Shown one piece after another: positions 1,974-18,081 of a DNA stretch of 64,000 nt (positions within the stretch are counted from its first letter, which is position 1; each line of letters begins with the position of its first letter). The DNA comes from Candidatus Parcubacteria bacterium. Lineage in GTDB: Bacteria > Patescibacteriota > Minisyncoccia > Phycocordibacterales > Zambryskibacteraceae. The notes beneath the pieces were generated by a model that saw only the letters and a program-made list of their open reading frames with translations, searched no databases and was not told the origin of the DNA. Position numbers and translations under genes: made by a program. The DNA lies in contig JAIFWN010000002.1 of the NCBI GenBank assembly GCA_019658995.1, positions 29,262 through 93,261 on the forward strand. The letters run 5' to 3'.

Positions 1974-3223
1974 TAGTATTCGGCTACTATCTTAATCTTT
2001 GCAGAGTCATTTGGAAAGGCCGACTTCCAGAAGGGCCTGATCATGGTTCTCGCACTCTCTATGGAAGGATAGTTCTTAAGGACTTTATCAACATCATCCC
2101 TCTGCACTCCTATGAGGTCGGATGCCAGGGCCGGCTCATCTGTAATGAAGCGGAGCTGGGCCGTTCCGGCCGCTTTTATCCGGATAGGTCCGCCACTGGC
2201 GAGGTCGGGCGCATTCGGTCCGGAGAAGGTTATATCGATTTTGGAAAAGTCCGGGATCTCTACCTGGCTGCCGACATTCTGGGCACCAAGTTTCTGAAGT
2301 GCGAGATACTGGGCAAGATCTCCTCTCTTGAAGATTGCGGCCGAGAGATCCCCGCGCTCTTTGACGGTTGCGGTATTGTCTGCGGAGGCCTCGGCCGGCA
2401 GGATTTCATAAGTAATAGTTGCAAGCCCGGGGAAAAGCACGTAATCGGACGGCATCTGGGCTCTTGCCTGATTCAGAAGTTCGCTCCTAAGTTCCTCGTC
2501 CAGAGTATCTTTAGCCTTGGCTACGTCTGCCGGACTGGCTTTCTTCCTAGTTCCGGTGAATCCGCCGGCCATGGCCGTTTTGCTCCTGGCATAGACCAGC
2601 TCATACCGCGGACCGCCCTTGAGACCGGGCAGTGTGAAGTCGGAGAGAGGAATGTTATACGAGGCACCGGGTTCTGCGGCAACCGCCAGGGTTTCCAGAC
2701 TTCCCTTGGCCGGGATGCTTACATCGCTTTGTATTCTGTAGATTTTTCCATCGGTAGTTTCGAGTCTGGTGGTTTTTACGAGCTTCTGCACGGTATCCTG
2801 CTGGTTGTAGATGATGACGGTACCCCTGGCGGATTCCTCGACAGTCTCTTCTCCGGAGGCTGGTATGCTCTGGCTCTTCTCACCGGAGAGCTTGATGATG
2901 CTATATGCAAGCTGTCCGAAAGCGGCCGACTGATACGCCGTGTATGCGTCACCGCTGAATGCAAGGTCAGACATTTTCGGCTTATAAGCAAGGGTGGCAC
3001 CGCTCATGAGAGAGAAAGCGATAAGAGCTATGACAAGCACGGCGACTACGCCGCTGATCCAGAGATTCCTGTTCTTATGATTTTTATGCTTCCTGGGTGT
3101 GAGGATTTCCTCCGGTTCGGTCACCTGAGATACTGAGACCGGCTCTATGCGTCTGACTGGCACACTGACATCCCTTATGGATCTCCTCCTCGGCGGCACC
3201 ATGTCTTCGATGTTCTTCGGCAT
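1973..3223 (-). CDS. hypothetical membrane-anchored protein (basic N-terminus, single TM, large extracytoplasmic domain)
   Basis: The 416-aa ORF overlaps infA by 1 nt. It has a hydrophobic segment WISGVVAVLVIALIAFSLM and no recognisable catalytic motif. Confidence 0.6.
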   Translation of the reverse strand: MPKNIEDMVPPRRRSIRDVSVPVRRIEPVSVSQVTEPEEILTPRKHKNHKNRNLWISGVVAVLVIALIAFSLMSGATLAYKPKMSDLAFSGDAYTAYQSAAFGQLAYSIIKLSGEKSQSIPASGEETVEESARGTVIIYNQQDTVQKLVKTTRLETTDGKIYRIQSDVSIPAKGSLETLAVAAEPGASYNIPLSDFTLPGLKGGPRYELVYARSKTAMAGGFTGTRKKASPADVAKAKDTLDEELRSELLNQARAQMPSDYVLFPGLATITYEILPAEASADNTATVKERGDLSAAIFKRGDLAQYLALQKLGAQNVGSQVEIPDFSKIDITFSGPNAPDLASGGPIRIKAAGTAQLRFITDEPALASDLIGVQRDDVDKVLKNYPSIESARTMIRPFWKSAFPNDSAKIKIVAEY

Positions 3224-3239
3224 TTTTATTAATTTTATA

Positions 3240-4409
3240 TTATTTCAGCAGGTTTGAGAAGGAGGAAAGCAGCAATATCTTCTCATCACCCAGCATCTCC
3301 GGCGACGCCCTTACAAGTTCTCTTGTGAAAGTGTTGGTATCTCCAAGGAGAATGATGCGTCGCCCGGTGAGAACGCTCTCCAAAAATGTTTTCATCAGCT
3401 TTTCGAAGCCGCTTGGCACCACCAGGAAGACTGAATACGGCACAGCGCTGCCTTCGGGAATACTCTCATCCATCTGGCGCCACAGCGATATCCATTTTTC
3501 CTCGACTTCTATGAATACACTGTCTATGGCTCCGGTTGTAGCCTGATCCAAAACTCCGGAGGCAAAGAGCGAGAGGTACGAATATGCGAGCTGGATCGGT
3601 ATTCCGAGCTTTTCCGCCACGGCCTTGGCTATGGATGCCGGGCCGAAGGCGAGCGTCGCGGCAAAGGCGGAACTTCCATGCCGCAGAAACAATACATCAG
3701 TAAATTCTAAAGTCATATCTATGAGCAGAGCCGAGTGCAGACTCTGGAATGAATGCGATAAAACCTTGAAGAAAGCGAACATGAAGCTATGCGTCGCCAT
3801 ACCCCTTCTTATACCGATTGATTTTACAAGCTCGCTTCCTACACTGCGCAGCAGATCCCTGCTGGCGGCACTGAGAAGAAAGCTTACTTCTGCTTTCTCG
3901 ACCCTGTCGCTCAGCGGAGCCTCAGACTCATATCCGTTCAGGTACAGATTGGTAATGGCGGATTCGAATATTTCATCTTGCGAACTATTGTCGTTCCTGA
4001 GTCTTTCCCTGAAGAGTACTTCCTCCTCACTTATAACATTCCTTAACATACTTTTATCAAGAACAAACCCCCCGGGCTTAGCCAGAATCACGGTTTTAAG
4101 ATGGGAGCGGAGCCATGGTGAAGAGAAAGTCACAAGAGCCCTGTGTACAGCACTGCCATAACCGCTTTTGGAAAGATTCGGTATATCTTTGGCGATGGAT
4201 GCAAGAGTTGTTCGCAGTGAAGCGAGCATCGGAACTTCCGGGTATTCTTCTGCGGGATTACTCCCGGTCGTAAACGGTGTACGAATCTTGGACGTTAGCG
4301 CGGGAGTGCCCTTGGGATCGGTATGTACAAGCGCGGCCGCGGTCGATCCGGAGGATATATCGACCACAAGGATGTTTTCACCGGAATCTTTCCGATTCAA
4401 AAAACTCAT
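3240..4409 (-). CDS. hypothetical protein, possibly an actin-like ATPase fold (FtsA/PilM-like)
   Basis: The 389-aa ORF has an N-terminal ILVVDISSGSTAAALV segment resembling the phosphate-1 motif of actin/Hsp70-fold ATPases. The assignment is tentative. Confidence 0.5.
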   Translation of the reverse strand: MSFLNRKDSGENILVVDISSGSTAAALVHTDPKGTPALTSKIRTPFTTGSNPAEEYPEVPMLASLRTTLASIAKDIPNLSKSGYGSAVHRALVTFSSPWLRSHLKTVILAKPGGFVLDKSMLRNVISEEEVLFRERLRNDNSSQDEIFESAITNLYLNGYESEAPLSDRVEKAEVSFLLSAASRDLLRSVGSELVKSIGIRRGMATHSFMFAFFKVLSHSFQSLHSALLIDMTLEFTDVLFLRHGSSAFAATLAFGPASIAKAVAEKLGIPIQLAYSYLSLFASGVLDQATTGAIDSVFIEVEEKWISLWRQMDESIPEGSAVPYSVFLVVPSGFEKLMKTFLESVLTGRRIILLGDTNTFTRELVRASPEMLGDEKILLLSSFSNLLK

Positions 4410-4413
4410 TATC

Positions 4414-6288
4414 CTATTGTAGCACCGCTTTGATACGGCGAACTCCTACGGAAACCGCTTCTTCCTTCTGGATTTTGAATATTCCCAATTCACTCGTATT
4501 TGAGACGTGCGGCCCGCCGCAAAGCTCTTTGGAGTAAGTGCCAATTGAGTAGACAGAAACTTGATCCGGATACTTTTGGTCAAAGAAGTGGAGTGCCCCG
4601 GACTTAATAGCTTCATTTTTATCCATAGTCACATTTTGCACCGGTATAGCCTCCTTGATCTTCTTATTTACGATATCCTCAACTCTCAACTTCTCCTCAT
4701 CGGTCATTTTGCGTGGGAAGGCAAAATCGAAACGCAGCCGCTCTGGTGTGATGTTACTTCCCTCTTGCTGTACCTCTGGCCCAAGTACGTCTCTTAGCGC
4801 TTGATGCAACAGGTGTGTAGTGGTGTGATATTTAACTTCTACGTCCGAATGTCCAGCCAATCCACCTTTGAATTTCTGCTCTGCACCTGCACGAGATAGC
4901 TCTCGATGCTTTTCAATTTCTTGATTGAACTCACTTTGTAGCCTCTTATAATCTTGAGGGAAAAAATAATGCTTGTTATGTGATTTTAATTCCTCGAGTG
5001 TCATTTCGAATGGAAACCCAAATGTCTGATAGAAATCAAACAACCATTTTCCTGTGACCTCAGATGGTGGAAAATCCCACATCTGAATATCATCCGGACC
5101 ATGCACAAGGCTTACATGATGAACTTTATAAGTCTGTCCTGGTCTACCTATCTGAGCCTCAATTTTTCTATGTAAAATTTTGAGGCCCTTTTCGAGAGTT
5201 TTCCTAAATTTATGCTCTTCCTCTAAAATTACCTCTCTTATGTACTCTTCGTCACCAAAATCATAGACTCCTCTATATTTATTTGTTACCAAGTCAATTA
5301 CTTCTCCAATTGCGTGCATTTCCACACCTAATTTGTCCGCATAACGCACAGCCCTTCTTATTATGCGTCTTAATACATAACCTTTATCAGTATTCGCAGG
5401 AATTACATGATCGGCGATTATAAATACTGACGTTCGGATATGATCGGCAACTATTCTTTCGGATCTTATATCTGAGCTCTTTTTTAGTTCATCAATTTTA
5501 GACATTATTGAAATGAAGAGGTCTGTATCAAAGATGCTATCCTTCTTTTGCAAAACCATTGCTAAGCGCTCGAGACCTGCACCGGTGTCGACATTTCGAC
5601 TAGGAAGCTTCCCAACTACTTTGCCATCCTTCTTTTCATATTCCATGAAGACATCATTCCAGATCTCAACAATTTTTTGTTCATTATCAGCCTTTAGAAA
5701 TTCCTCATGAGTTAGATCACCGAGTCCCTCTGGTGTTATGTCGTAATACATTTCAGTATCTGGACCGGACGGACCATTGTCCCCAGCGCTCCACCAGTTC
5801 TTATCGGCTGGCAGGAAATAGATACGATTTTCAGGTATATATTTCTTCCATATTTCCGCAGCTTCGTTATCACGTGGTGCATTTTCGTCTCCAGCGAACA
5901 CTGTTATATAAAGCCTATTCGGATCAAGGCCGAAACCCTCTTCTTTATCAGTTAGTAATTCGTAACTCCATTTAATTGCATCTTCCTTGAAATAATCTCC
6001 GAGTGACCAGTTCCCTAGCATTTCAAAGAAGGTGTCATGGGTTTTGTCTCCAACCTCCTCAATATCCTGAGTCCTGACGCTTTTCTGCACATTAGCAAGC
6101 CTTTTACCTTTTGGATGATCTTTGCCAAGGAGATACGGGATAAGGGGCTGCATGCCGGCAGAAATAAAGAGAGTTTTATTGGTCTTCTCCGACTCATCAG
6201 GCGCAACTAACGAGGCTGAAGGGATAATGGCGTGTCCCCTCTTTTCAAAAAAAGCGAGAAATCGCTTGCGGATTTCCTGTGATTCCAT
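4414..6288 (-). CDS. alaS: alanine--tRNA ligase, short form without the C-terminal C-Ala/DHHA1 domain
   Basis: The 624-aa ORF has the class II AlaRS catalytic core (FFEMLGNWSLGDYFK, DTGAGLERL) and editing-domain motifs (HTTTHLLHQAL … CGGPHV). The protein ends directly after the editing domain. Confidence 0.9.
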   Translation of the reverse strand: MESQEIRKRFLAFFEKRGHAIIPSASLVAPDESEKTNKTLFISAGMQPLIPYLLGKDHPKGKRLANVQKSVRTQDIEEVGDKTHDTFFEMLGNWSLGDYFKEDAIKWSYELLTDKEEGFGLDPNRLYITVFAGDENAPRDNEAAEIWKKYIPENRIYFLPADKNWWSAGDNGPSGPDTEMYYDITPEGLGDLTHEEFLKADNEQKIVEIWNDVFMEYEKKDGKVVGKLPSRNVDTGAGLERLAMVLQKKDSIFDTDLFISIMSKIDELKKSSDIRSERIVADHIRTSVFIIADHVIPANTDKGYVLRRIIRRAVRYADKLGVEMHAIGEVIDLVTNKYRGVYDFGDEEYIREVILEEEHKFRKTLEKGLKILHRKIEAQIGRPGQTYKVHHVSLVHGPDDIQMWDFPPSEVTGKWLFDFYQTFGFPFEMTLEELKSHNKHYFFPQDYKRLQSEFNQEIEKHRELSRAGAEQKFKGGLAGHSDVEVKYHTTTHLLHQALRDVLGPEVQQEGSNITPERLRFDFAFPRKMTDEEKLRVEDIVNKKIKEAIPVQNVTMDKNEAIKSGALHFFDQKYPDQVSVYSIGTYSKELCGGPHVSNTSELGIFKIQKEEAVSVGVRRIKAVLQ

Positions 6289-9273: not shown

Positions 9274-10347
9274 TTACCCAATTATACCACCACCCAAACA
9301 TGCCTCACCGTCGTAAAAAACTATGGATTGGCCCGGGGCGGCAGTTTGCGGGTGGCTGAATTCCACCTCTTTTTGATGCAGAATTACCGGAAATTTGTCC
9401 TGCCTGTATCTGATACGGGCTTCTAAGTGCTTGCTTTTGGGTTCTATAAGCCAGTTTGTATGTTCAAGACCGACTTTGCCAGGTAAGTATGAAGAAACCG
9501 TATGCGGATTATCAGAAACGATGACAGTATTCTTCACCACATCTTTGGCAACTACGAAATATGGCTTTGATTCCGGAGCCTTCTTGGTGATTTCCAGCCC
9601 ATGGCGCTCACCGATAGTGTAGAGCAATGCCCCATTATGCTTACCTATGACCTCGCCGTTTGTATCTAACACTTCACCAGGCTCAGTATGGATAAAGTGT
9701 GAGAGGAATTCCTCTATATCCACGTCTCCGAGGAAGCAGATACCCTGGCTGTCCTTCTTATCCGCTGTCGGTAAACCAAATTTCTTAGCTAGTTTACGCA
9801 CTTCTTCCTTATGCAAGTGTCCGACCGGAAAAAGCACATGCTCAAGGTCTCCCGGGGTCAAAGTCCAGAGGAAGTAGCTCTGATCCTTGTCTTTGTCTGT
9901 GCCTTCGAGTAATTTGCCATCGACATTACGGGCATAATGGCCTGTGGCGATGTAATTCGCACCCATCTCCTTAGCACTTTTCCAAAAAGCTCCGAACTTG
10001 ATTTCCTTGTTGCACATTACATCCGGGTTAGGCGTATGGCCCTTCCGATATTCTTCGATCATGTAATCCGCTACACCCCTTTTGTACTCGTCGGAAAAGT
10101 CAAAGAAAAGAAAAGGGATGTCGAGCCGTGCCGCCACTCTCATGGCATCTCTTCTCTCCTCTCTCCAAGTACAGGGTAAAAAGTCCGGTTGCCAGACCTT
10201 TATGAAAACCCCGGTGACATCGTAGCCCCGCTCTTTTAAGAGTGCCGCCGAGACGGCGCTGTCTACGCCCCCGGAGAGGCCGACGAATACCTTATCTTTA
10301 GAGATATTTCTGGATATTTCTTGTGTGCTCTTCAAGGGTCTTAGCAT
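9274..10347 (-). CDS. mnmA: tRNA-specific 2-thiouridylase MnmA
   Basis: The protein has the PP-loop VFVGLSGGVDSAV and conserved TGHYAR, YFL and GICF motifs. The ORF-track N-terminal extension to 10494 overlaps mltG and is probably spurious; the internal Met is used as the start. Confidence 0.85.
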   Translation of the reverse strand: MLRPLKSTQEISRNISKDKVFVGLSGGVDSAVSAALLKERGYDVTGVFIKVWQPDFLPCTWREERRDAMRVAARLDIPFLFFDFSDEYKRGVADYMIEEYRKGHTPNPDVMCNKEIKFGAFWKSAKEMGANYIATGHYARNVDGKLLEGTDKDKDQSYFLWTLTPGDLEHVLFPVGHLHKEEVRKLAKKFGLPTADKKDSQGICFLGDVDIEEFLSHFIHTEPGEVLDTNGEVIGKHNGALLYTIGERHGLEITKKAPESKPYFVVAKDVVKNTVIVSDNPHTVSSYLPGKVGLEHTNWLIEPKSKHLEARIRYRQDKFPVILHQKEVEFSHPQTAAPGQSIVFYDGEACLGGGIIG

Positions 10348-11182
10348 AGTGGGTATTGCCTTCTTTGTCACTGAGGAAGTAGAGGTATGGAGAAGTTTCG
10401 GGATTTGCAGCGGCTTTGATGGATACAAGGCCCGGGTTGTTGATGGGTTTTGGAGGCAGGCCCGCTGTCCTGTAAGTATCAGGCGCAGCATCAACCTGGA
10501 GAGGCATACCTATGGAAATGCGCTTCCAGAGAATGCCGGAGACAAGCCTTTTATCCCTCTCTGTCTGGACTTCGGCCTCTATGACGGAGGCCATCCTGAT
10601 GATTTCATCCTTCGAGCGTTTGGAGTCCGAGATTTCTTTCTCTAAAGTTGCGATTTTTTTATCGAAGTTGCTTTGCATAAGCTCTATGACAGATCCAGCT
10701 GTAGCGTTTATTTGTATGAAATAAGTATCCGGGAACATGTACCCCTCGGGTGCAAGGGATTTAAAGATATCCTTATCGAAGAACGGAAACCTTTCGTCGA
10801 AAAGAGGTGCAATCTCGCTGACTTTGTATCCCTCGGGTATCGTGACCTTTACCAGAGTCAGATCGTGAGAGCCTCTGACCATTCTCCAGGCTAAAGTTAC
10901 AGCATTTTGGGGCTTTCTCAGATTATAGTCGCCCGCCTGTACACCCCTCTCTCCTCCCATGGTGATAACTGCGGCACGGAACCACAAAGCCGAGCGCACG
11001 ACATTTTGCTTTTCGAGCTCGTGAGAGAGCGCCGCGAGGCTGGCACCCTTTTTAATCGTTATGATATTCCCTGCTGGAAAATATCTGGGAGCGGCAAACG
11101 CCAGGACAAAACACAAATTAAACAAAAAAAGCCCCCCGAATACGTATAGCCTCCAGTCCCGCAAAGTTTCCTTCCAAGTCAT
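10298..11182 (-). CDS. mltG: endolytic murein transglycosylase MltG (YceG-like)
   Basis: The protein has an N-terminal TM helix followed by a YceG domain (…TIPEGYKVSEIAPLF…VIEAEV…YLYF…). The start is taken at the internal Met MTWKETL. Confidence 0.8.
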   Translation of the reverse strand: MTWKETLRDWRLYVFGGLFLFNLCFVLAFAAPRYFPAGNIITIKKGASLAALSHELEKQNVVRSALWFRAAVITMGGERGVQAGDYNLRKPQNAVTLAWRMVRGSHDLTLVKVTIPEGYKVSEIAPLFDERFPFFDKDIFKSLAPEGYMFPDTYFIQINATAGSVIELMQSNFDKKIATLEKEISDSKRSKDEIIRMASVIEAEVQTERDKRLVSGILWKRISIGMPLQVDAAPDTYRTAGLPPKPINNPGLVSIKAAANPETSPYLYFLSDKEGNTHYAKTLEEHTRNIQKYL

Positions 11183-11183
11183 A

Positions 11184-12425
11184 TCAAATGGGCAAGTTAG
11201 CCGGCGCCTCGGCCTTCTTCGAAGGTATACGCTGAAGTGTCGGCGTAGCCGCAACCCCACCCGGGAAGTGGAAAATGGTAGCCAGCTCCTCGGTAGTTAG
11301 AATGAACGGCTTGCCGTTGAAATTTTTGAACGGCGGAGCGAAGAAGGATCGCCTCTTGTAGGCTTCGAGAAGCTGCCTCTCTCTCTGGGCTTTTTCTTTG
11401 CCGAAAGGATCCTGCCACGGGTATTCGAAAGACGCGCTAAAACCGGGCTTGAAACCGTTCAGGGCGCCGGAACCGAACTGGGACATACTGCCTATGAGCC
11501 CTCCGATATTGGTAGGACTGTAGACTTCCTTGTCAGCAAAGTAAGTTGCCCGAATCATTGTATCGAAGGCAGTCTTACCTGTAGTGCGTTCGATAGCAGA
11601 TATCACGTCCTTTTGACCCTGGCTCAAGTGTTTCGTAGAGTCTACCGTCTTGTCGTCCTTATCCTTGAGAATGCCTTCCTTCAAAATTTTCTTGATCTCC
11701 TTTTTTACATTATCTCTCCAGTCTGGTTTCGTAATGATTCTTCCGAGTTTCAGTCCCTCCTTGGTGTGCGCCCGTATGAGTATCTGTATCCAGGCTTGCT
11801 CCCCCTTCCTCATAGAACCCAGGAACTCAAGAACAGCCACAAGAGGATCGTTCTTGAACTCCTCCTTTGGATCCTTATCGAGTCCGTAATCCACATATGT
11901 CTTAATGGGATACGGATCCGGTTTGGTGAGAGCAAATTGCCCGAACCAGCCGAAAGTTATCTTTTCCGGATCCCTATGCACACCGAGCGAATAATCGGAT
12001 GCCTCATGTATTTCTATATTTGGGAACTGGGCATAGAGCTGAGCCTCCACCCTTCTCCTGTATCCCTCGTGACACCAGATGAAGAAGTGCACAGAACCTC
12101 CGATCGAAACCAGCTCGAGAGAGAACCACGGGCGCATTGCTCCCTCTACATACACCTTGATAAGACTCCCGGAGATCGGGTTATAAAGAGTGTTCAAAAA
12201 GAGTTCCATGGCCTGAGGTGATTTACTCATTTCCCGCGGAAGTTTGATCTCAAGGAGCACGCTACCCTGTTTGCGTACCCACTCGCGCCGCTTGAGCTCT
12301 ATCCAGATATCAAAAAGAAAGCCCACCACAAAGGCTGTTATCCAGAGAGGCGAGGTCACCCTGGCAATGTGAAGGAAGTTGCGTACGAACTCAGTATCGA
12401 AAGAGGCAGAGAGCGCATCTAGCAT
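11184..12425 (-). CDS. hypothetical protein with an N-terminal TM helix
   Basis: The 413-aa ORF is tightly packed with its neighbours and has no recognisable catalytic motif. Confidence 0.6.
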   Translation of the reverse strand: MLDALSASFDTEFVRNFLHIARVTSPLWITAFVVGFLFDIWIELKRREWVRKQGSVLLEIKLPREMSKSPQAMELFLNTLYNPISGSLIKVYVEGAMRPWFSLELVSIGGSVHFFIWCHEGYRRRVEAQLYAQFPNIEIHEASDYSLGVHRDPEKITFGWFGQFALTKPDPYPIKTYVDYGLDKDPKEEFKNDPLVAVLEFLGSMRKGEQAWIQILIRAHTKEGLKLGRIITKPDWRDNVKKEIKKILKEGILKDKDDKTVDSTKHLSQGQKDVISAIERTTGKTAFDTMIRATYFADKEVYSPTNIGGLIGSMSQFGSGALNGFKPGFSASFEYPWQDPFGKEKAQRERQLLEAYKRRSFFAPPFKNFNGKPFILTTEELATIFHFPGGVAATPTLQRIPSKKAEAPANLPI

Positions 12426-12464
12426 CTATTTATATTAGCACGCCCGCCTGCGCAGGCAGGAATC

Positions 12465-13523
12465 CTAGACGGCGTGGTAGCGTCCGGAAGGATCCTTCTT
12501 AAAATATTTTGGATTCTGAAGGTTAACCATAATGGTGTTTTCCTTGACGTAACGCTCCTTCAGCACTTTTTTGATCACCTCGTCCTTAGTTAAAGGGCCC
12601 TCCTTCTCCAGAATTTTCTTGATCACGTCTTTGACCACACCGGACATGTAACCCCATTCGGCAAGAGCATAAAGTCCGCGACCGACGAGGACGAAACGCG
12701 GATCCTTTATAAGCTCGTTGTGAGTAGTTGCTACGTGGGCCTTCTTATCAAAATACTGGGAAATTGCCTTAGCCACCTCCTTAAAATGTATAGGTGAGCC
12801 ATGTTTTCTTATGACCAGAAAAGCATAGTCACGCATGCCTTTGGCATTGACGTTAGGCGAAGTGGCACGTCCCCACTCTCCCAGAGGATTCTTGCCAATC
12901 TTGTTCGATATTGAGAGCCAACGCTTGATGACCTCCTCGTTCTTGTACTTGTCATTCAGATCCTTTACCTCTTCGAGGAAGTCATCTATGAGGTCGCTCT
13001 CGAGCACCAGCTCATCATCGGAAAGTTTGGAATAAAGCTTGCGAAGGGCTCCCTGTATGCGCTTGGCGAGCTCCGGATCGACATGCCAGCGGTGCTTGAA
13101 CTCCTCGTCCTCCTTCTCGCGTATAAACTCCTCACCGATAACCAGGAGAAAGTTCAAATGATTCTGGGTGGACTGGTCTTTGGACAAATGCTTGAGGAGA
13201 TCCTTTTCCGAAACAATGCCCCCGAGCTCAAGCACCAGGGCCTTAAGCTCGTCGAACACCGGGCGGAGATCCTTATACTCCTTAGATTTCCTTATGATTG
13301 TGAGAGAGTGGTTCTCTATCTGCCGTACACGCTCGCGGGTAATCTCGTATTTCTTGCCGATGGCATCCAGAGTCATCCTTGTGGCTTTAACGCCGAGGCC
13401 GTATCTGTTTTCGATTACATCTTGACCGCGTTTGGAGAGGACGGAAAGCAGGCGCTTCGTGACCGCCTTAGGTTTGAAACTAAGTGTGAACTTATCACTC
13501 ATGACTTCTGCTATTTCTATCAC
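12465..13523 (-). CDS. sigma-70 region 4 HTH fused to a HARE-HTH (RpoE/delta-like) domain protein
   Basis: The N-terminus has LSKRGQDVIENRYGLGVKATRMTLDAIGKKYEITRERVRQIENHSL, a canonical sigma-70 region 4. The C-terminus has HFKEVAKAISQYF…DPRFVLVGRGLYALAEWGY, a HARE-HTH signature. Confidence 0.65.
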   Translation of the reverse strand: MIEIAEVMSDKFTLSFKPKAVTKRLLSVLSKRGQDVIENRYGLGVKATRMTLDAIGKKYEITRERVRQIENHSLTIIRKSKEYKDLRPVFDELKALVLELGGIVSEKDLLKHLSKDQSTQNHLNFLLVIGEEFIREKEDEEFKHRWHVDPELAKRIQGALRKLYSKLSDDELVLESDLIDDFLEEVKDLNDKYKNEEVIKRWLSISNKIGKNPLGEWGRATSPNVNAKGMRDYAFLVIRKHGSPIHFKEVAKAISQYFDKKAHVATTHNELIKDPRFVLVGRGLYALAEWGYMSGVVKDVIKKILEKEGPLTKDEVIKKVLKERYVKENTIMVNLQNPKYFKKDPSGRYHAV

Positions 13524-13549
13524 CCCCCGCTATCCATGTCAAGTACTAG

Positions 13550-16288
13550 TCAAGAAACGACAAAGTTGATGATTTTACCCGGCACTATAATAACTTTTTT
13601 GACTTCCCTATTCTCAAGCCACTTGCTAACTTCTGGCAGATCTTTTGTTAATTTCTCGAGCTCATCTTTAGAAATTTCCTTAGGGACAGTCAAGCTTGCG
13701 CGTACCTTGCCGTTTACCTGTATAGCTACTGTGATTTCATCCCTTATCAGTTTAGATTCATCATATTTGGGCCAGATTTCCTTCTGTAACGAAGATCGGT
13801 GGCCAAGTATCTCCCAGAGTTCCTCGGTAATGTGGGGAGCGAATGGTGAGAGTACAAGTAAAAAGTTTTGAAATTCCTCCATGGATATCTTCTCTTTCTT
13901 CTCGAGCAAGTTGGCCCAGACCATCATCGCTGAAACTGCGGTGTTGAAACCCATACTTTCTATGTCTTCGGACACTTTTTTTATAGTTGAATGCATTGCT
14001 TGCTCGTCTGAGACCCCGCCGAGCTTGTCCTGCAGCCTCCAAACACGCTCCAGAAATCTTCTCGGACCTACAAGCGCGTCATCGTTCCATTGAATCGCCT
14101 GCTCGAACGGGCCCATGAACATCTCATAGAGCCGCAGGGTATCGGCGCCGAAACGGTCTATTATCGAATCGGGATTAACTACATTACCCTTAGATTTGCT
14201 CATCTTGTCCCCCTGAGGCGCTAGTATTACTCCTTGAGAGGTACGCTTTTTATAAGGTTCGCTCGTGGGCACGAGACCGAGATCGAATAAGAACTTATTC
14301 CAGAAACGGGAGTACAGAAGATGGAGCGTGGTGTGTTCCATGCCACCGTTATACCAATCAATAGGCATCCAATGTTTAAGTTTACTCTTTGATGCAAACT
14401 CCTGGTCATTTTTCGGATCCGTATAACGGTAGAAATACCATGAAGAACCAGCCCAATTTGGCATGACGTCCGTCTCTCTTTTGGCTTCGCCACTACATTT
14501 AGGACACTTAATATTTACCCACTCCTCCACATTGGCCAGAGGTGACTCGCCGGTATCGGTAGGTTGGTACTTGTCTATCTTAGGCAGTTCTACGGGTAAA
14601 TCCTTCTCTGGAACTGCCACGTAACCACACTTCTCGCAATGTATTATTGGTATCGGCTCGCCCCAGTACCGCTGGCGGGAAAAAATCCAGTCGCGGAGTT
14701 TGTATCGAGTCACCTTTTTGCCAAACTTCTCGGCGATCTTCAGTCGTGCTTCATCGATTGGCATACCATCGAACTCACCGGAATTCATGAGGAAGCCGAT
14801 CTCTTCGAACTTACCACCCTCGGTCGAGCCAGCTGCGGCGTATAAGTTATTGCCCCGGGATCTGTTCCAGGCCAGACGCATATCCGGATTGGTTATGAAA
14901 GATTCCATCTCTTCAGGAGTCAGCCAGAAGAGTCGGTGGAGCTTGCGCTCTTCTTCCGCGACATTTGCCATGTCACCATCTTTTAATTTGTATAGAACTG
15001 GTTCGAAGTGGGCAAAGCGATTCACGTTCTTCTCAGTTTGGAAGAATTGGGCATGGATCTTACCAGGTATTACCTTCATGATCTCCGGATTTTTGTATCC
15101 CGTCTCTTCCACTATCTCGCGCAGACCGGCATCAGCCGCGCTCTCACCCTCTTCGATACCCCCGATACTGAAACCTCTCCAGCCGGTGGTACCCCAATCT
15201 ACTCCGAGATATTTGTCCTCTGACCAGTGCTTGATAATTGAAACTACGGCGCGACGCTCCTTTACCGGCACATCGGTGCGAAACCCGTCCTTGCCGCCGA
15301 TCTTTCTCACCAACGGTTCGATAACTTCTTTAAGCGGCAAAACGTGTTTCCTAGCAAACTCGTAGTCTCGCTCGTCGTGCGCGGGCACGCCCATAATAGC
15401 TCCTGTGCCGTAGTCGGCCATCACATACTCAGATTCCCAGACTGGGATTTTTTCTTTCGTAGCCGGATTGGTCACATATTGGCCGGTAAACCTGTCTTCC
15501 TTCCCCGCCTTAACGATAAAAGTAGCTCCGAAGATCGTGTCCGGTCTCGTGGTAAAGACCTCGATATCATCAAACTTAACTAAAGCCCCTTCGCTCCTTC
15601 CTATCCAGTTTCTCTGCTGAGCCTTAACGCTCTCCGGATAATCCACATCATCCAGATCCTTCAAAAGTCTCTCGGCATATTTGGTAATAGCGAGCATCCA
15701 CTGCTCCTTCTCGCGCTTTTCCACTACCGTGCCGCAACGTTCGCAGCGACCATCGACCACCTCCTCATTTGCGAGCACTATTTTATCTTTAGGACACCAG
15801 TTCACCTCCGTCTTGGCCTTGTACGCCAAACCTTTTTCGAAAAACTTCAGGAATATCCACTGCGTCCACTTGTAATACTTGGGATCAGTCGTGTTTACCT
15901 CGCGCGACCAATCGAAGGACAAGCCGAGTGACTTCATCTGCTTCCGGAAGTTGTCAGTATTCTCTTTTGTGATCTCCGCGGGTTGGCGTCCGGTCTTAAT
16001 AGCGTAGTTTTCCGTCGGCAGACCGAAGGCGTCCCAGCCTATCGGATATAGAACGTTATAGCCCTGCATACGTCGCTTGCGCGAGACTATATCTAAAGCG
16101 GTGTAGCTTCGTACATGGCCCACATGCAACCCGTCTCCGGAGGGATACGGGAACTCGATAAGCGAATACCACTTAGGCTTCTTACCGAGAATTGGGAAAG
16201 GGCTCGGATCTTTGGCTTCAAATGCCTTTTCCTCCTCCCATTTCCTCTGCCACTTCTGCTCTATCTCTTTAGGTTCATATTCTCTCAT
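13550..16288 (-). CDS. leuS: leucine--tRNA ligase with an inserted Nudix hydrolase domain
   Basis: The protein has HVGHVRSY (HIGH), TTRPDT and GTGAIMGVPAHDERDYEFA (CP1 editing), NSGEFDG and KMSKS motifs. An insertion of about 170 aa between the AHD and NSGEF motifs contains a perfect Nudix box, GGIEEGESAADAGLREIVEETGY. Confidence 0.9.
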   Translation of the reverse strand: MREYEPKEIEQKWQRKWEEEKAFEAKDPSPFPILGKKPKWYSLIEFPYPSGDGLHVGHVRSYTALDIVSRKRRMQGYNVLYPIGWDAFGLPTENYAIKTGRQPAEITKENTDNFRKQMKSLGLSFDWSREVNTTDPKYYKWTQWIFLKFFEKGLAYKAKTEVNWCPKDKIVLANEEVVDGRCERCGTVVEKREKEQWMLAITKYAERLLKDLDDVDYPESVKAQQRNWIGRSEGALVKFDDIEVFTTRPDTIFGATFIVKAGKEDRFTGQYVTNPATKEKIPVWESEYVMADYGTGAIMGVPAHDERDYEFARKHVLPLKEVIEPLVRKIGGKDGFRTDVPVKERRAVVSIIKHWSEDKYLGVDWGTTGWRGFSIGGIEEGESAADAGLREIVEETGYKNPEIMKVIPGKIHAQFFQTEKNVNRFAHFEPVLYKLKDGDMANVAEEERKLHRLFWLTPEEMESFITNPDMRLAWNRSRGNNLYAAAGSTEGGKFEEIGFLMNSGEFDGMPIDEARLKIAEKFGKKVTRYKLRDWIFSRQRYWGEPIPIIHCEKCGYVAVPEKDLPVELPKIDKYQPTDTGESPLANVEEWVNIKCPKCSGEAKRETDVMPNWAGSSWYFYRYTDPKNDQEFASKSKLKHWMPIDWYNGGMEHTTLHLLYSRFWNKFLFDLGLVPTSEPYKKRTSQGVILAPQGDKMSKSKGNVVNPDSIIDRFGADTLRLYEMFMGPFEQAIQWNDDALVGPRRFLERVWRLQDKLGGVSDEQAMHSTIKKVSEDIESMGFNTAVSAMMVWANLLEKKEKISMEEFQNFLLVLSPFAPHITEELWEILGHRSSLQKEIWPKYDESKLIRDEITVAIQVNGKVRASLTVPKEISKDELEKLTKDLPEVSKWLENREVKKVIIVPGKIINFVVS
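14806..15316 (-). other. Nudix hydrolase domain inserted inside leuS (Nudix box at about 15095..15163)
   Basis: The consensus GX5EX7REUXEEXGU is matched exactly by G-GIEEG-E-SAADAGL-RE-I-V-EE-T-G-Y. The reading frame was verified on the DNA at 15095-15178. Confidence 0.8.
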
Positions 16289-16294
16289 CGGAGA

Positions 16295-17257
16295 TTATCT
16301 CTTGATCGGAGGATAGAAGTCGGGATCGATAGTGCGATCATAGCAATAGTGCCCAGCCGGGTGCGCCCAGTTATTCTGGCCCTTCATCATCGCCGGTTCG
16401 GAAGACATTGTTGCGCGGAAAGGCATCATTGGATAAACACCGCCGCCGTAGTTTATATTCTCGGGAGTTTCGCGGTCGAAATAAGCACAGAGCTTGAAGG
16501 AGAGATTCCCGGTTTTCTGATATTCGTAAGGTAAGCCAGAAGCCGGGTCGGAAGGAATATTCCAACCGGAGAGCTCGTTTTTGGCCAGATCGTCCATGCT
16601 TACGGGCAAAGCTTCTTTCTGCTGCCAGTAGCTTATAACTTGCCACTGGATATTCTCGAGATGCATTACTCTGTCGGAGTCGCGACGGTATGCTCTCTGC
16701 GTTGCTGGCGAGCCAAGGACGACGAATCCGGCAATTATCGAACCTGCCACAAGCACAGTGGCGAGGATCCTCCAGGCCATTCTGTTTCGTGCAGTCAGCT
16801 TATTCCAGAGATCCTGCAGATAGTAAACAAAGACGGTGCCGGCGACGACCAGCACTGCGAGAACCTTAAGCAGAAAGCCGGTAGTGATCTCCTGTCCGTC
16901 AAGGAACTGGTAAACCAGAGTAATGAGATCTATAGCTACGGCGATGCCGGCGAAGAAGAGGGTTACATACACGAGCCACTTGCGGAGTGCCGCATCACGG
17001 AGCGAAGGATCGCTCTGATAGCTTCTTTGCACCAGCCAGGAGAGGACGATGAAGAGCGGAAAGACGATAATCAGGGTTGCTACCGGGAGGCTTATGGGGC
17101 TCGAGACGTAGTAGTACGAGGCGTACTCGGGCATCCTCGGAAATGCGGTATCAATGATTCTGAATAAGAGATTTATAAGTGCAATGGCTCCTGCATAAAG
17201 TGCAGCCAGAGCTCCAATCTGCAAAAAGAAATCCTTGGCGGTGATTTTGGTATTCAT
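16295..17257 (-). CDS. hypothetical integral membrane protein with multiple TM helices
   Basis: The 320-aa ORF has at least five hydrophobic helices and a hydrophilic C-terminal domain. Confidence 0.6.
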   Translation of the reverse strand: MNTKITAKDFFLQIGALAALYAGAIALINLLFRIIDTAFPRMPEYASYYYVSSPISLPVATLIIVFPLFIVLSWLVQRSYQSDPSLRDAALRKWLVYVTLFFAGIAVAIDLITLVYQFLDGQEITTGFLLKVLAVLVVAGTVFVYYLQDLWNKLTARNRMAWRILATVLVAGSIIAGFVVLGSPATQRAYRRDSDRVMHLENIQWQVISYWQQKEALPVSMDDLAKNELSGWNIPSDPASGLPYEYQKTGNLSFKLCAYFDRETPENINYGGGVYPMMPFRATMSSEPAMMKGQNNWAHPAGHYCYDRTIDPDFYPPIKR

Positions 17258-17264
17258 AGGTCTA

Positions 17265-18081
17265 TTATATCAAAAACTCGACTACGTCGCCGTCTTGCAC
17301 GATATACTCTTTGCCTTCCGTACGTACCCAGCCTTTGGCCTTAGCAGCGGGATATGATCCGGCTTCCAGAAGTTTGTCGTAGTGTATTACTTCTGCCCGT
17401 ATAAACTTCTCCATGAAGTCCGTGTGGATCGATTTGGCTGCGAATGGTGCAGTGGCTCCACGCTTCCCTGGTCCAGGCTCTAGACTCCTTCTCCCCCGTA
17501 GTGAAGAAAGTGATGAGATTTAGGAGGTCGTAGCTGGCTTGTACGAGTTTATCGAGACCCGTGCCGAAGATCGGATCTATTTCTATATACGGTCCTGGGA
17601 TCTTGTCTAAAATTTCCCTGTGGTTGTCCGCCGCTTCGGAAGTGTTCACTACATAGAGTATGGGCTTGTCGATGCCGGCAGCCTTGAGCTCCATATTGAT
17701 AATCTCGATATCGAAGAGCGGATCGACTTTGTCGTACACATGAATGATGTCTTTGTCTTCAAAAATTCTGACTACTTCTATAATTGCGTCGACTTCTCGG
17801 ATATGAGAGAGGAATTTGTTACCCAGGCCCGCCCCCTCACTTGCTCCTTTAACTAAGCCAGCAATGTCGACGAATTCGACTACGGCTGGGATAGTCTTCT
17901 TCGATTTGCTCATGGCCGAAAGCTTATCCAGGCGCTCGTCCGGCACAGGCACGATACCGACAGACGGATCTATGGTGCAGAAGGGGTAATTCTCCGCCGG
18001 CACGCTCTTCTTGGTAAGCGCATTGAAGAGCGTGCTCTTCCCAACATTCGGCAATCCTACGATACCAATTGACAGAGACAT
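17265..18081 (-). pseudogene. ychF: ribosome-binding ATPase YchF (short CPR-type), interrupted by a frameshift near 17466
   Basis: The N-terminus has [18 protein letters not shown] and the protein runs through …[13 protein letters not shown]. The conserved C-terminus ([34 protein letters not shown]…KGWVRTEGKEYIVQDGDVVEF*) continues in a different frame and ends at 17265. The ORF track confirms that the annotated frame ends in nonsense sequence. Confidence 0.7.

Follow-up and report, generated by a model that had tools for sequence, protein, structure and literature searches.

An apparently active Nudix hydrolase domain inserted within the CP1 editing domain of leucyl-tRNA synthetase in Parcubacteria

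Few enzymes are as conserved as the synthetases, and the architecture of bacterial leucyl-tRNA synthetase (LeuRS) is held to vary mainly by loss, either of CP1 or of the leucine-specific domain, which is found in most bacterial LeuRSs and is not defining. Dinucleoside polyphosphates arise in aminoacyl-tRNA synthetases (aaRSs) by attack of ATP or another NTP on the aminoacyl-adenylate; LeuRS is not known as one of the classical strong producers of Ap4A. The aaRSs are the chief cellular source of Ap4A and Ap4N, which Nudix enzymes cut asymmetrically (PMC13627108). According to Dunn et al. 1999, as summarised in PMC5389931, ApnA hydrolases have a Tyr in the X-loop, approximately 17 residues past the Nudix box. 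The known aminoacyl-AMP hydrolases are HIT-family enzymes (cited in PMC7157772). The minimal LeuRS of Mycoplasma mobile (3ziu) is without CP1 and has GKDG instead of the leucine-specific domain (PMC3643597). Here we describe a LeuRS with a Nudix hydrolase domain within CP1. The earlier note on this DNA was not aware of such a fusion having been described, and our literature search likewise found no paper on this architecture; no curated model for a Nudix-LeuRS was found in NCBIfam.

The leuS gene lies in a window of 64 kb (the whole stretch of DNA that was analysed); the Nudix-bearing architecture explains why genes of this kind are labeled by NCBI only as 'class I tRNA ligase family protein'. 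In an NCBIfam profile search the protein scored 948.4 bits against TIGR00396 (leuS_bact, cut-off 548.4) in three stretches that are broken by the insert, and additional Pfam matches were to tRNA-synt_1, the LeuRS editing domain and Anticodon_1. The enzyme had been called otherwise canonical, and all of the motifs on which that description was based could be located in the translation: HIGH, as HVGH, at residues 55-58, TTRPDT at 246-251, AHDERD at 303-308, NSGEF at 502-506 and KMSKS at 695-699. Across 90 homologs both HIGH and KMSKS were invariant, as were the editing residues T251, D305, R307 and D308. The leucine-specific domain is absent from the window LeuRS, in which the region ahead of KMSKS reads SQGVILAPQGDKMSKS (APQGD before KMSKS). 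A full-length AF2 model had a pLDDT of 88.5 and TM scores of 0.74-0.79 to the T. thermophilus and E. coli LeuRSs. Judged by its motifs, the LeuRS that carries the module looks like a still functional synthetase and editor.

In the alignment, neither E. coli LeuRS nor the module-less orthologs have the inserted segment (Table 1). The spacing from HDERD..F to NSGEF is 190 residues, as against 34 in E. coli, so the net insertion is approximately 156 residues; about 170 had been noted from the sequence, at 14806-15316, coordinates that translate to residues 325-494. The shortening of the TTRPDT-to-HD segment was also borne out (58 residues versus 94 in E. coli, with an alignment deletion of about 40 residues). 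In the AF2 model, the β-strands of the hairpin flanking the module comprise residues 323-328 and 496-500, and the linker at residues 481-495 had pLDDT values of 51-63, with values below 50 at residues 487-492. As modeled, the module sits in frame in a surface β-hairpin of CP1, with a firm N-terminal and a flexible C-terminal connection. An intein-like element was considered and rejected: the boundaries (...VIEP/LVRK... and ...GGKF/EEIG...) are without the splice-junction residues looked for at the insert edges, namely an N-terminal Cys or Ser and a C-terminal His-Asn followed by Cys, Ser or Thr, and no Pfam match to a Hint/intein domain was found in the LeuRS protein.

Table 1. Features of the Nudix-bearing leuS gene, in positions of the window
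Feature	Position	Strand	Basis or remark
leuS, 912-aa bacterial-type leucyl-tRNA synthetase with insert	13550..16288	-	ORF, TIGR00396
N-terminal CP1 editing part, aa 231-324	15317..15598	-	Pfam tRNA-synt_1_2
TTRPDT	15536-15553	-	in N-terminal CP1 part
AHDERD	15365-15382	-	in N-terminal CP1 part
Inserted segment (Nudix module plus linkers), aa 325-494	14807..15316	-	translation
Nudix fold proper, aa 332-488	14825..15295	-	
Nudix box GGIEEGESAADAGLREIVEETGY, aa 376-398, catalytic E391, E394, E395	15095..15163	-	sequence
X-loop/hairpin and distal acidic residue: F415-F416, K420, N423, R424 ... E447	14948..15046	-	conservation
C-terminal module linker, aa 481-495 (NLYAAAGSTEGGKFE), low confidence	14804..14848	-	AF2 pLDDT
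C-terminal CP1 part, aa 495-529 (EIGFLMNSGEFDG...KIAEKF), closes the module-bearing hairpin	14702..14806	-	AF2 strands, E. coli alignment

A search with Pfam NUDIX (PF00293), which the earlier note had proposed, scored 37.5 bits with the whole protein and 41.0 bits with the insert alone, compared with a gathering score of 21.1. The Nudix box had been read as an exact match to GX5EX7REUXEEXGU, and this is correct for G376-x5-E382-x7-R390-E391-I-V-E394-E395-T-G397, but the final U position is occupied by Tyr (Y398), which is not aliphatic; Tyr is found there in 91% of the clade. The pattern RExxEExG had a single match across all six frames of the window, and this was in the LeuRS insert. Structure prediction gave the module a Nudix fold, with the α/β/α sandwich that characterizes it, at an AF2 pLDDT of 93.7 when modeled by itself and 88-97 as part of the whole protein, and in the AF2 model the Nudix box lies on a helix (residues 384-396) within a loop-helix-loop. 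Among 264 modules, E391 and E395 were conserved in 100% and E394 in 95%, the glycines G376, G377 and G397 in 98-99%, and the distal E447 in 91%. The X-loop and hairpin residues from F415-F416 to E447 are specific to the clade and near-invariant (91-99% of the same modules), and it is presumed that these residues and E447 bind substrate and metal. The catalytic glutamates have been kept regardless of a mean pairwise identity of only 39% between modules, compared with 68% between LeuRS cores, and it is likely that the module has retained catalytic activity. The insert thus has the features of a complete, autonomous Nudix pyrophosphohydrolase domain, apparently active, that belongs to a Patescibacteria-specific clade.

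In a survey of related CPR LeuRSs, the module was present in 101 of the 120 closest relatives (Parcubacteria/Paceibacteria), whose assemblies come independently from NCBI, JGI, ENA and Logan. When only the insert was used as query, a word-indexed search for homologs gave no match. An exhaustive HMMER search with the insert was more informative, with LeuRSs or LeuRS fragments making up most of the best 150 matches. The clade is narrow (325 representative clusters at E≤1e-3) and overwhelmingly internal to LeuRS, where the module was found at no fewer than three distinct sites in one to three copies, including tandem modules at site B (P0210); one class II ProRS also hosts an inserted member. The module exists as a free-standing gene as well, in some genomes directly upstream of leuS in a neighborhood syntenic with that of the window. 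One such gene stops 1 nt short of a leuS that itself bears a Nudix domain and another adjoins a Nudix-less leuS whose product has 807 aa, and more divergent free-standing members have unrelated genes as neighbors, away from leuS. A truncated ORF that follows the free-standing P0277 in three assemblies was suspected of being leuS and proved to be an NAD-dependent epimerase. A scan of species-representative genomes with a single module found one true relative; a Phyllobacterium Nudix from the same scan was dismissed as generic, being without the motifs of the clade. The same hot spots in the LeuRSs of relatives were also seen to house HAD, α/β-hydrolase, DUF559/Vsr-like nuclease and nucleotidyltransferase-like segments, and some relatives have the Nudix domain and a HAD phosphatase together.

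Seven close LeuRS orthologs, scattered in the core tree, are without the module. One of these is the nearest ortholog to the window core (79% identity, syntenic), and no Nudix gene was found in the 14 kb of sequence examined there. The seven losses, together with this nearest ortholog that has neither the module nor a Nudix gene nearby, indicate that the coupling of module and LeuRS is dispensable. The window gene itself is a mosaic, in which the core is closest to this module-less ortholog and the module is of the type of another LeuRS lineage, its nearest relative being 63% identical. For 31 of 83 proteins the module phylogeny disagreed with that of the host, and the closest pairs of modules were never much more alike than their host cores. 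The discordance reflects either exchange of the cassette by recombination or hidden paralogy, that is, tandem modules followed by differential loss, as P0210 might illustrate. The module behaves as an evolutionarily mobile cassette, with gain, loss, duplication, relocation and probable exchange in the history of the LeuRS lineages. Since a mosaic with a module from a different LeuRS lineage is also what might be seen if a chimeric join in assembly or binning had put a foreign Nudix fragment inside leuS, a possibility that the earlier note had raised against its own reading, we examined this explanation and consider it almost inconceivable. The same in-frame architecture recurs in approximately 100 assemblies drawn independently from four sources of data, which excludes the chimera, and the 63% identity of the nearest module leaves no donor able to yield a k-mer misjoin. 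Furthermore, both junctions of the insert are in frame and at a structural hairpin, the composition is uniform with no GC discontinuity across the insert, and the identical protein is found on a 94-kb NCBI contig ('Candidatus Parcubacteria bacterium').

The analysis shows the fold, the conserved catalytic residues, the intact LeuRS motifs and the repeated and varied links, physical and genomic, between this Nudix clade and aaRS genes; the identity of the substrate, and the functional benefit of tethering the module to LeuRS, are what we infer. The reading we favor, to which we would give about an even chance, is that the module is a tethered Nudix enzyme that hydrolyzes dinucleoside polyphosphates (Ap4A, Ap3A, Np4N) and clears the by-products of the synthetase from within an intact LeuRS. 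The aminoacyl-adenylate of LeuRS would be attacked by ATP or another NTP to give Ap4A, Ap3A or Np4N, and this by-product would be hydrolyzed by the Nudix module of the very enzyme that made it. Among solved structures the module came closest, at about 20% identity, to Ap4A/Ap6A/diadenosine-polyphosphate hydrolases, RppH and decapping Nudix enzymes; 3i7u, 4mpo, 1vc8, 9cxx and RppH were among the top matches, with other subfamilies close behind. The X-loop of the window module has F415-F416 at +17 and +18 from the box, with Phe in place of the canonical Tyr; among the 264 modules, position +17 is F in 83% and Y in 14% (F or Y in 97%), and position +18 is Y in 55% and F in 40%. Substrates of the Ap4A/ApnA type would fit both the closest structural neighbors and this X-loop aromatic. 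The best NCBIfam match was RppH/NudH for 37 of 39 modules, although weakly: the cut-off of the RppH equivalog (NCBIfam PRK00714 models), 118 bits, was missed by a wide margin, the best score being 30.7. This shortfall, the Phe in the window X-loop, the fact that LeuRS is not known as a strong Ap4A producer, the dispensable coupling and the divergent free-standing members away from leuS count against the favored reading.

That RppH match, and the high place of RppH, AvrM14 and oomycete decapping effectors in the structural comparison, might suggest instead that the module acts on RNA ends, in the manner of RppH or a decapping enzyme, removing a 5'-ppp or Np4-cap from synthetase-bound tRNA or other RNA, and both LeuRS and ProRS as hosts do bind tRNA acceptor ends. 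We regard this as distinctly unlikely, since the RppH cut-offs were not reached and the variable insertion sites give the module no fixed position relative to a bound tRNA; the same structural neighbors also hydrolyze free ApnA, so that action on RNA and on a free dinucleotide are not separable by this comparison. Another explanation is that the module is a generic housecleaning Nudix parked in permissive loops, with LeuRS as its carrier and no link to leucylation. An essential, constitutively expressed gene in a tiny genome would then simply serve as host, and the function would be that of the free-standing form. The range of LeuRS sites (at least three or four) and copy numbers (one to three), the unrelated domains (HAD, α/β-hydrolase, DUF559/Vsr-like, nucleotidyltransferase-like) that share the hot spots, the repeated loss seen in the seven dispersed orthologs, the free-standing members in unrelated gene contexts and the flexible linker to CP1 are all compatible with such parking. 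However, random parking would not be expected to give the specificity of the clade for aaRS hosts (LeuRS, ProRS once, and a place beside leuS for free members), and the catalytic residues are strongly constrained when fused; on balance we consider it unlikely.

CP1, which houses the module, binds the 3' end of tRNA, and it might be proposed that the module counters a nucleotide-based attack on leucylation, either by clearing the CCA end of the tRNA of a pyrophosphate or nucleotide adduct that a toxin had put there or by destroying a toxic nucleotide that targets LeuRS. Such a role in conflict or repair would explain a rapid turnover of modules, and the discordant phylogenies, the mosaic window gene, the multiple copies and the fast diversification of the modules relative to the core are of this kind; where a HAD phosphatase accompanies the Nudix domain, the two could dephosphorylate in two steps. 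Tandem duplication (as in P0210) with differential loss can also explain the turnover, though, and PADLOC defence-system models gave no meaningful match, nor were toxin or immunity genes present nearby in the neighborhoods examined. We consider this role improbable, and so too its wider form, in which the Nudix, HAD, α/β-hydrolase and nuclease inserts would be swapped modules of an arms race around tRNA-Leu and LeuRS that provide built-in repair or immunity. The least credible of the functional explanations is one the earlier note had entertained, pre-transfer proofreading, in which the Nudix domain would hydrolyze misactivated aminoacyl-adenylates leaving the synthetic site. The location inside the editing domain and the CP1 of the window LeuRS, shorter by about 40 residues, speak for it. 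Nudix enzymes cut pyrophosphate linkages, but an aminoacyl-adenylate is an acyl-phosphate and has no such bond, and since the post-transfer editing residues are invariant there is no decayed editing function to replace. Moreover, window-type modules mostly accompany a full-length CP1. The module also turns up elsewhere in LeuRS and in hosts other than LeuRS, and its varied sites, tandem copies, ProRS host and free-standing gene argue against a fixed geometry that would channel an adenylate from the synthetic site. We therefore judge proofreading to be highly improbable.

In Parcubacteria/Paceibacteria, a major bacterial radiation, LeuRS has become the carrier of one to three Nudix domains, whose catalytic sites are intact, and sometimes of further hydrolases. 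If the module degrades Ap4A/Np4N, this LeuRS would be the first example of a synthetase that makes an alarmone and is physically joined to the enzyme that degrades it, and ApnA homeostasis in minimally regulated organisms would become directly accessible to experiment. Action on RNA ends or toxins would imply a new tier of quality control for tRNAs and aaRSs, and in an arms-race role the synthetase would have repair or immunity built into it, for which no precedent has been described. The insertion sites also provide a natural map of permissive positions in LeuRS that may be useful for protein engineering.

The closest known systems to the module itself are the ApnA Nudix hydrolases and RppH/NudH, namely Aquifex aq_158 (3i7u), Chlamydia CT771 (4ilq/4mpo), Thermus Ndx1 (1vc8), M. 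tuberculosis Rv2985 (9cxx) and E. coli RppH (4s2x/7sp3). Identity to these structures is about 15-21%, and the module differs from them in having the near-invariant set of its own clade (R345, K420-x2-N423-R424, H451 and W455) and in lying inside an aaRS, whereas they are free-standing. The HIT-family enzymes Hint, which acts on lysyl-AMP, and MccH, which acts on processed microcin C (PMC7157772), are likewise small nucleotide hydrolases tied to aaRS chemistry, but they are phosphoramidases or acyl-AMP hydrolases rather than pyrophosphatases, have a different fold and are not fused to a synthetase. Like the LeuRS of M. mobile, the window LeuRS has no leucine-specific domain and a trimmed CP1; unlike that enzyme, which has only lost parts, it has kept its editing residues and gained a whole enzyme domain. 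An IleRS with an N-acetyltransferase domain (NF040702) and NadM-Nudix (NF003786) similarly join a housekeeping enzyme and a domain that processes small molecules in one polypeptide. In those proteins the domain is appended, whereas the LeuRS module is inserted within CP1 and, unlike them, occurs at alternative sites, varies in copy number and has probably been exchanged between lineages.

The leuS gene of the window encodes a bacterial-type leucyl-tRNA synthetase (LeuRS), which in a profile search matched TIGR00396 with 948 bits (cut-off 548) and gave Pfam matches to tRNA-synt_1, the LeuRS editing domain and the anticodon-binding domain. Every synthetase motif quoted in the earlier note was found in the ORF, and in an alignment of 90 homologs the HIGH and KMSKS residues and the editing residues T251, D305, R307 and D308 were invariant. 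The full-length AlphaFold2 model (pLDDT 88.5, pTM 0.77) was superposed on the LeuRSs of T. thermophilus, N. gonorrhoeae and E. coli with TM values of 0.70-0.79. The segment from TTRPDT to the HD motif had been described as short, and this was borne out by measurement, as approximately 40 aa following TTRPDT are missing from the CP1 editing domain in comparison with E. coli and with the long-CP1 Parcubacteria lineage. The leucine-specific domain is absent, and in the stretch aa 685-699, which ends with KMSKS, the sequence APQGD lies immediately N-terminal to that motif; this resembles the LeuRS of Mycoplasma mobile, in which GKDG replaces that domain.

Coordinates of the features discussed
Feature	Sequence	Position	Strand	Description or basis
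leuS	window	13550-16288	minus	bacterial-type leucyl-tRNA synthetase, single 912-aa ORF
Inserted segment	window	14807-15316	minus	aa 325-494; translation
KMSKS	window	14192-14206	minus	sequence
Antisense ORF	window	14700-15365	plus	221 aa
ychF-type GTPase gene	window	17262-18081	minus	frameshift near 17465
ychF ORF	window	17341-18081	minus	
Alanyl-tRNA synthetase	window	4414-6288	minus	624 aa
Block syntenic with L003	window	11184-18081		
Nearest core relative of LeuRS	L003 (Logan ERR15009265)	3924-6098		724 aa, module-less
Free-standing Nudix clade member	L004 (GCA_040384245.1)	10001-10492		163 aa
leuS	L004 (GCA_040384245.1)	11071-13494		807 aa
Prolyl-tRNA synthetase P0253	L012 (JGI 3300036940)	2906-4837		class II, internal Nudix

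The distance from HDERD..F to NSGEF is 190 residues in this protein and 34 in E. coli. The extra segment scored 41 bits with Pfam NUDIX (PF00293; gathering score 21.1) and contains a complete Nudix box, G376-x5-E-x7-R-E-I-x-E-E-x-G-Y398, the only match to RExxEExG in a six-frame translation of the 64-kb window. The Nudix insertion in CP1 claimed in the earlier note is thereby confirmed; its "exact" match to the box needs a single correction, in that the final "U" is a tyrosine. Nothing independent supports the antisense ORF that overlaps with the Nudix-coding stretch; it most probably arises from the composition of the coding strand.

An assembly artefact was ruled out by an identical NCBI protein on a 94-kb "Candidatus Parcubacteria bacterium" contig, by continuous base composition across the insert, and by a survey of the 120 best LeuRS relatives (most at 55-66% identity over the full length), 101 of which, from NCBI, JGI, ENA and Logan assemblies, carry PF00293. 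The assemblies of module-bearing relatives are named Parcubacteria, Paceibacterota, Zambryskibacteria, Nomurabacteria, Minisyncoccota and the like. The neighbors of leuS in the window (AlaRS, MnmA, a sigma-like/HARE-HTH protein, DUF5671, YchF, UvrA and UvrB) are ordinary Patescibacteria housekeeping genes. The ychF gene beside DUF5671 and leuS is frameshifted: its ORF terminates in nonsense sequence, and the C-terminal approximately 65 aa (...VVEFLI), which match the intact 271-aa ortholog on contig L003, resume in a different frame, reflecting either an indel introduced in sequencing or assembly, or a pseudogene. The AlaRS stops directly behind its tRNA_SAD editing motif; the C-terminal (C-Ala) domain that typical bacterial AlaRS enzymes have appears to be missing.

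Modeled alone with an alignment of 39 modules, the Nudix module formed a Nudix α/β/α sandwich (pLDDT 93.7, pTM 0.86), and within the full-length model it retained a pLDDT of 88-97. In the latter it protrudes from a CP1 β-hairpin (strands 323-328 and 496-500), with a low-confidence C-terminal linker (aa 481-495). Across 264 modules out of 243 proteins, the metal-binding glutamates E391, E394 and E395 were conserved at 100%, 95% and 100%, and G376, G377 and G397 at 98-99%. Clade-specific residues were R345 (97%), an aromatic at 415 (97%), K420 (99%), N423 (98%), R424 (91%), E447 (91%), H451 (81%) and W455 (97%). All these residues are kept even though the modules have diverged much more than their hosts (mean pairwise identity 39% and 68%), a pattern expected of an active enzyme under purifying selection. 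The best NCBIfam match was RppH/NudH for 37 of 39 modules, with weak scores far under the equivalog cut-offs. An X-loop tyrosine marks ApnA hydrolases (PMC5389931), and the modules have an aromatic residue in that position, at +17/+18 from the box. We conclude that the module represents a Nudix clade of its own, which resembles the ApnA/RppH branch most and belongs to no curated subfamily.

This clade is narrow: when 1.84 billion representatives were searched exhaustively by HMMER with the 170-aa insert as query, only 325 clusters in all were found at E<=1e-3. About 190 of the classified modules occupy the same position as in the window (site B, after core residue ~324, the core being LeuRS minus the module), 27 lie just before TTRPDT (site A), and a few follow core residues ~385 and ~430. 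About 39 fall outside recognizable LeuRS sequence; several of these are LeuRS fragments, and the non-LeuRS set includes one di-Nudix protein along with the prolyl-tRNA synthetase and the free-standing proteins described below. Two or three modules occur in certain LeuRSs (the proteins noted are P0121, P0122, P0065 and P0210), in tandem at one site, as with the two at site B of P0210, and/or at separate sites. The nearest relative of some site-A modules is a site-B module, which indicates duplication between sites.

In its evolution the module behaves like a cassette. Core and module identities to the window protein are anti-correlated (Spearman -0.80): the core averages 72% identity to the short-CP1 lineage and 64% to the long-CP1 lineage, whereas residues 321-480, exactly the module, show 53% to the module type of the long-CP1 lineage and 32% to that of the short-CP1 lineage, and each contrast held in 1000/1000 column bootstraps. 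In core sequence, the closest relative (79% identity; ranked first in 999/1000 bootstraps) is the module-less LeuRS of L003, a contig fully syntenic with the window block in the same gene order. It lacks both the module and the NSGEF-helix end of CP1 and has the linker KYKKAGFEDFG instead; six other module-less LeuRSs have a homologous short linker and likewise a replaced NSGEF segment. All seven are dispersed over the core tree, each sister to module-bearing enzymes, and several read VPADDERD in place of VPAHDERD. In 31 of 83 module-bearing LeuRSs, the nearest relative of the module resides in a clearly more distant host; homologs P0044 and P0087, for example, share 89% core identity but only 50% module identity. 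Either recombination between the strongly conserved flanks exchanged cassettes, or multi-module ancestors underwent differential loss; on both accounts, the module turns over far more quickly than one would expect of a domain in an essential enzyme. Other domains occupy the same LeuRS hot spots in frame in relatives of 1100-1500 aa (P0017, P0018, P0030, P0058, P0091 and P0116): a DUF559/Vsr-like nuclease, alone or together with a nucleotidyltransferase-like segment, before TTRPDT, and a Ser_hydrolase-type α/β-hydrolase or HAD phosphatase after the CP1/Zn-knuckle region.

The same clade occurs inside prolyl-tRNA synthetase P0253, between the anticodon-binding and ProRS-C_1 (C-terminal) domains; there the box has degenerated in its Gx5E part and has lysine in place of R390, while EIIEETGY and KDVNR are retained. 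Genuine free-standing members of about 160 aa exist on long contigs. Those closest to the window's lineage directly precede leuS within the same block of synteny (YchF, DUF5671, Nudix, LeuRS, sigma-like, DUF8128, YceG, MnmA), while more divergent members have unrelated gene contexts. On a JGI 3300071358 contig, the end of the Nudix gene lies 1 nt ahead of leuS, whose 951-aa product likewise contains a Nudix domain. On L004 and a Logan contig, it precedes an 807-aa leuS whose site B is uninterrupted; the L004 LeuRS carries no Nudix inside, and its T-rich editing motif reads DSVPQT, a degenerate form of TTRPDT. L004 also has an unrelated 148-aa Nudix gene 2 kb upstream. Fusion, insertion into a second synthetase and gene adjacency jointly support a functional link between the clade and synthetases, and the free-standing forms indicate that the enzyme can function alone.

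The best-supported reading, which we consider about evenly balanced between right and wrong, is that the module is a predicted tethered, autonomous ApnA/Np4N-type pyrophosphatase. Aminoacyl-tRNA synthetases are the principal source of Ap4A/Ap4N, made when ATP or another NTP attacks the aminoacyl-adenylate, and Nudix hydrolases split these products asymmetrically (PMC13627108). The tethered module would cleave the ApnA/Np4N made by its synthetase. That it is present in various LeuRS positions, inside ProRS and in a neighboring gene is consistent with a function that would need proximity or co-expression, and not with one dependent on precise docking. The variable placement, together with the intact editing residues, also makes unlikely the hydrolysis of misactivated aminoacyl-adenylates put forward in the earlier note; the aminoacyl-adenylate bond is, moreover, of the wrong type for Nudix chemistry.

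It is unlikely that LeuRS serves solely as a carrier in which a housecleaning enzyme is parked, and RppH-like action on RNA ends is distinctly doubtful. A role in conflict or repair, suggested by the rapid module turnover, we regard as highly improbable.

A full-text literature search found no description of a Nudix-LeuRS, in line with the earlier note, whose author was aware of none; a review of the Nudix clan (PMC5389931) nowhere mentions tRNA, and NCBIfam has no model for the architecture, NCBI naming these proteins just "class I tRNA ligase family protein". Each of the two component families is well known, and the architecture is that of a synthetase with an accessory catalytic domain; the cassette-like evolutionary behavior of the module is unusual and previously unreported.
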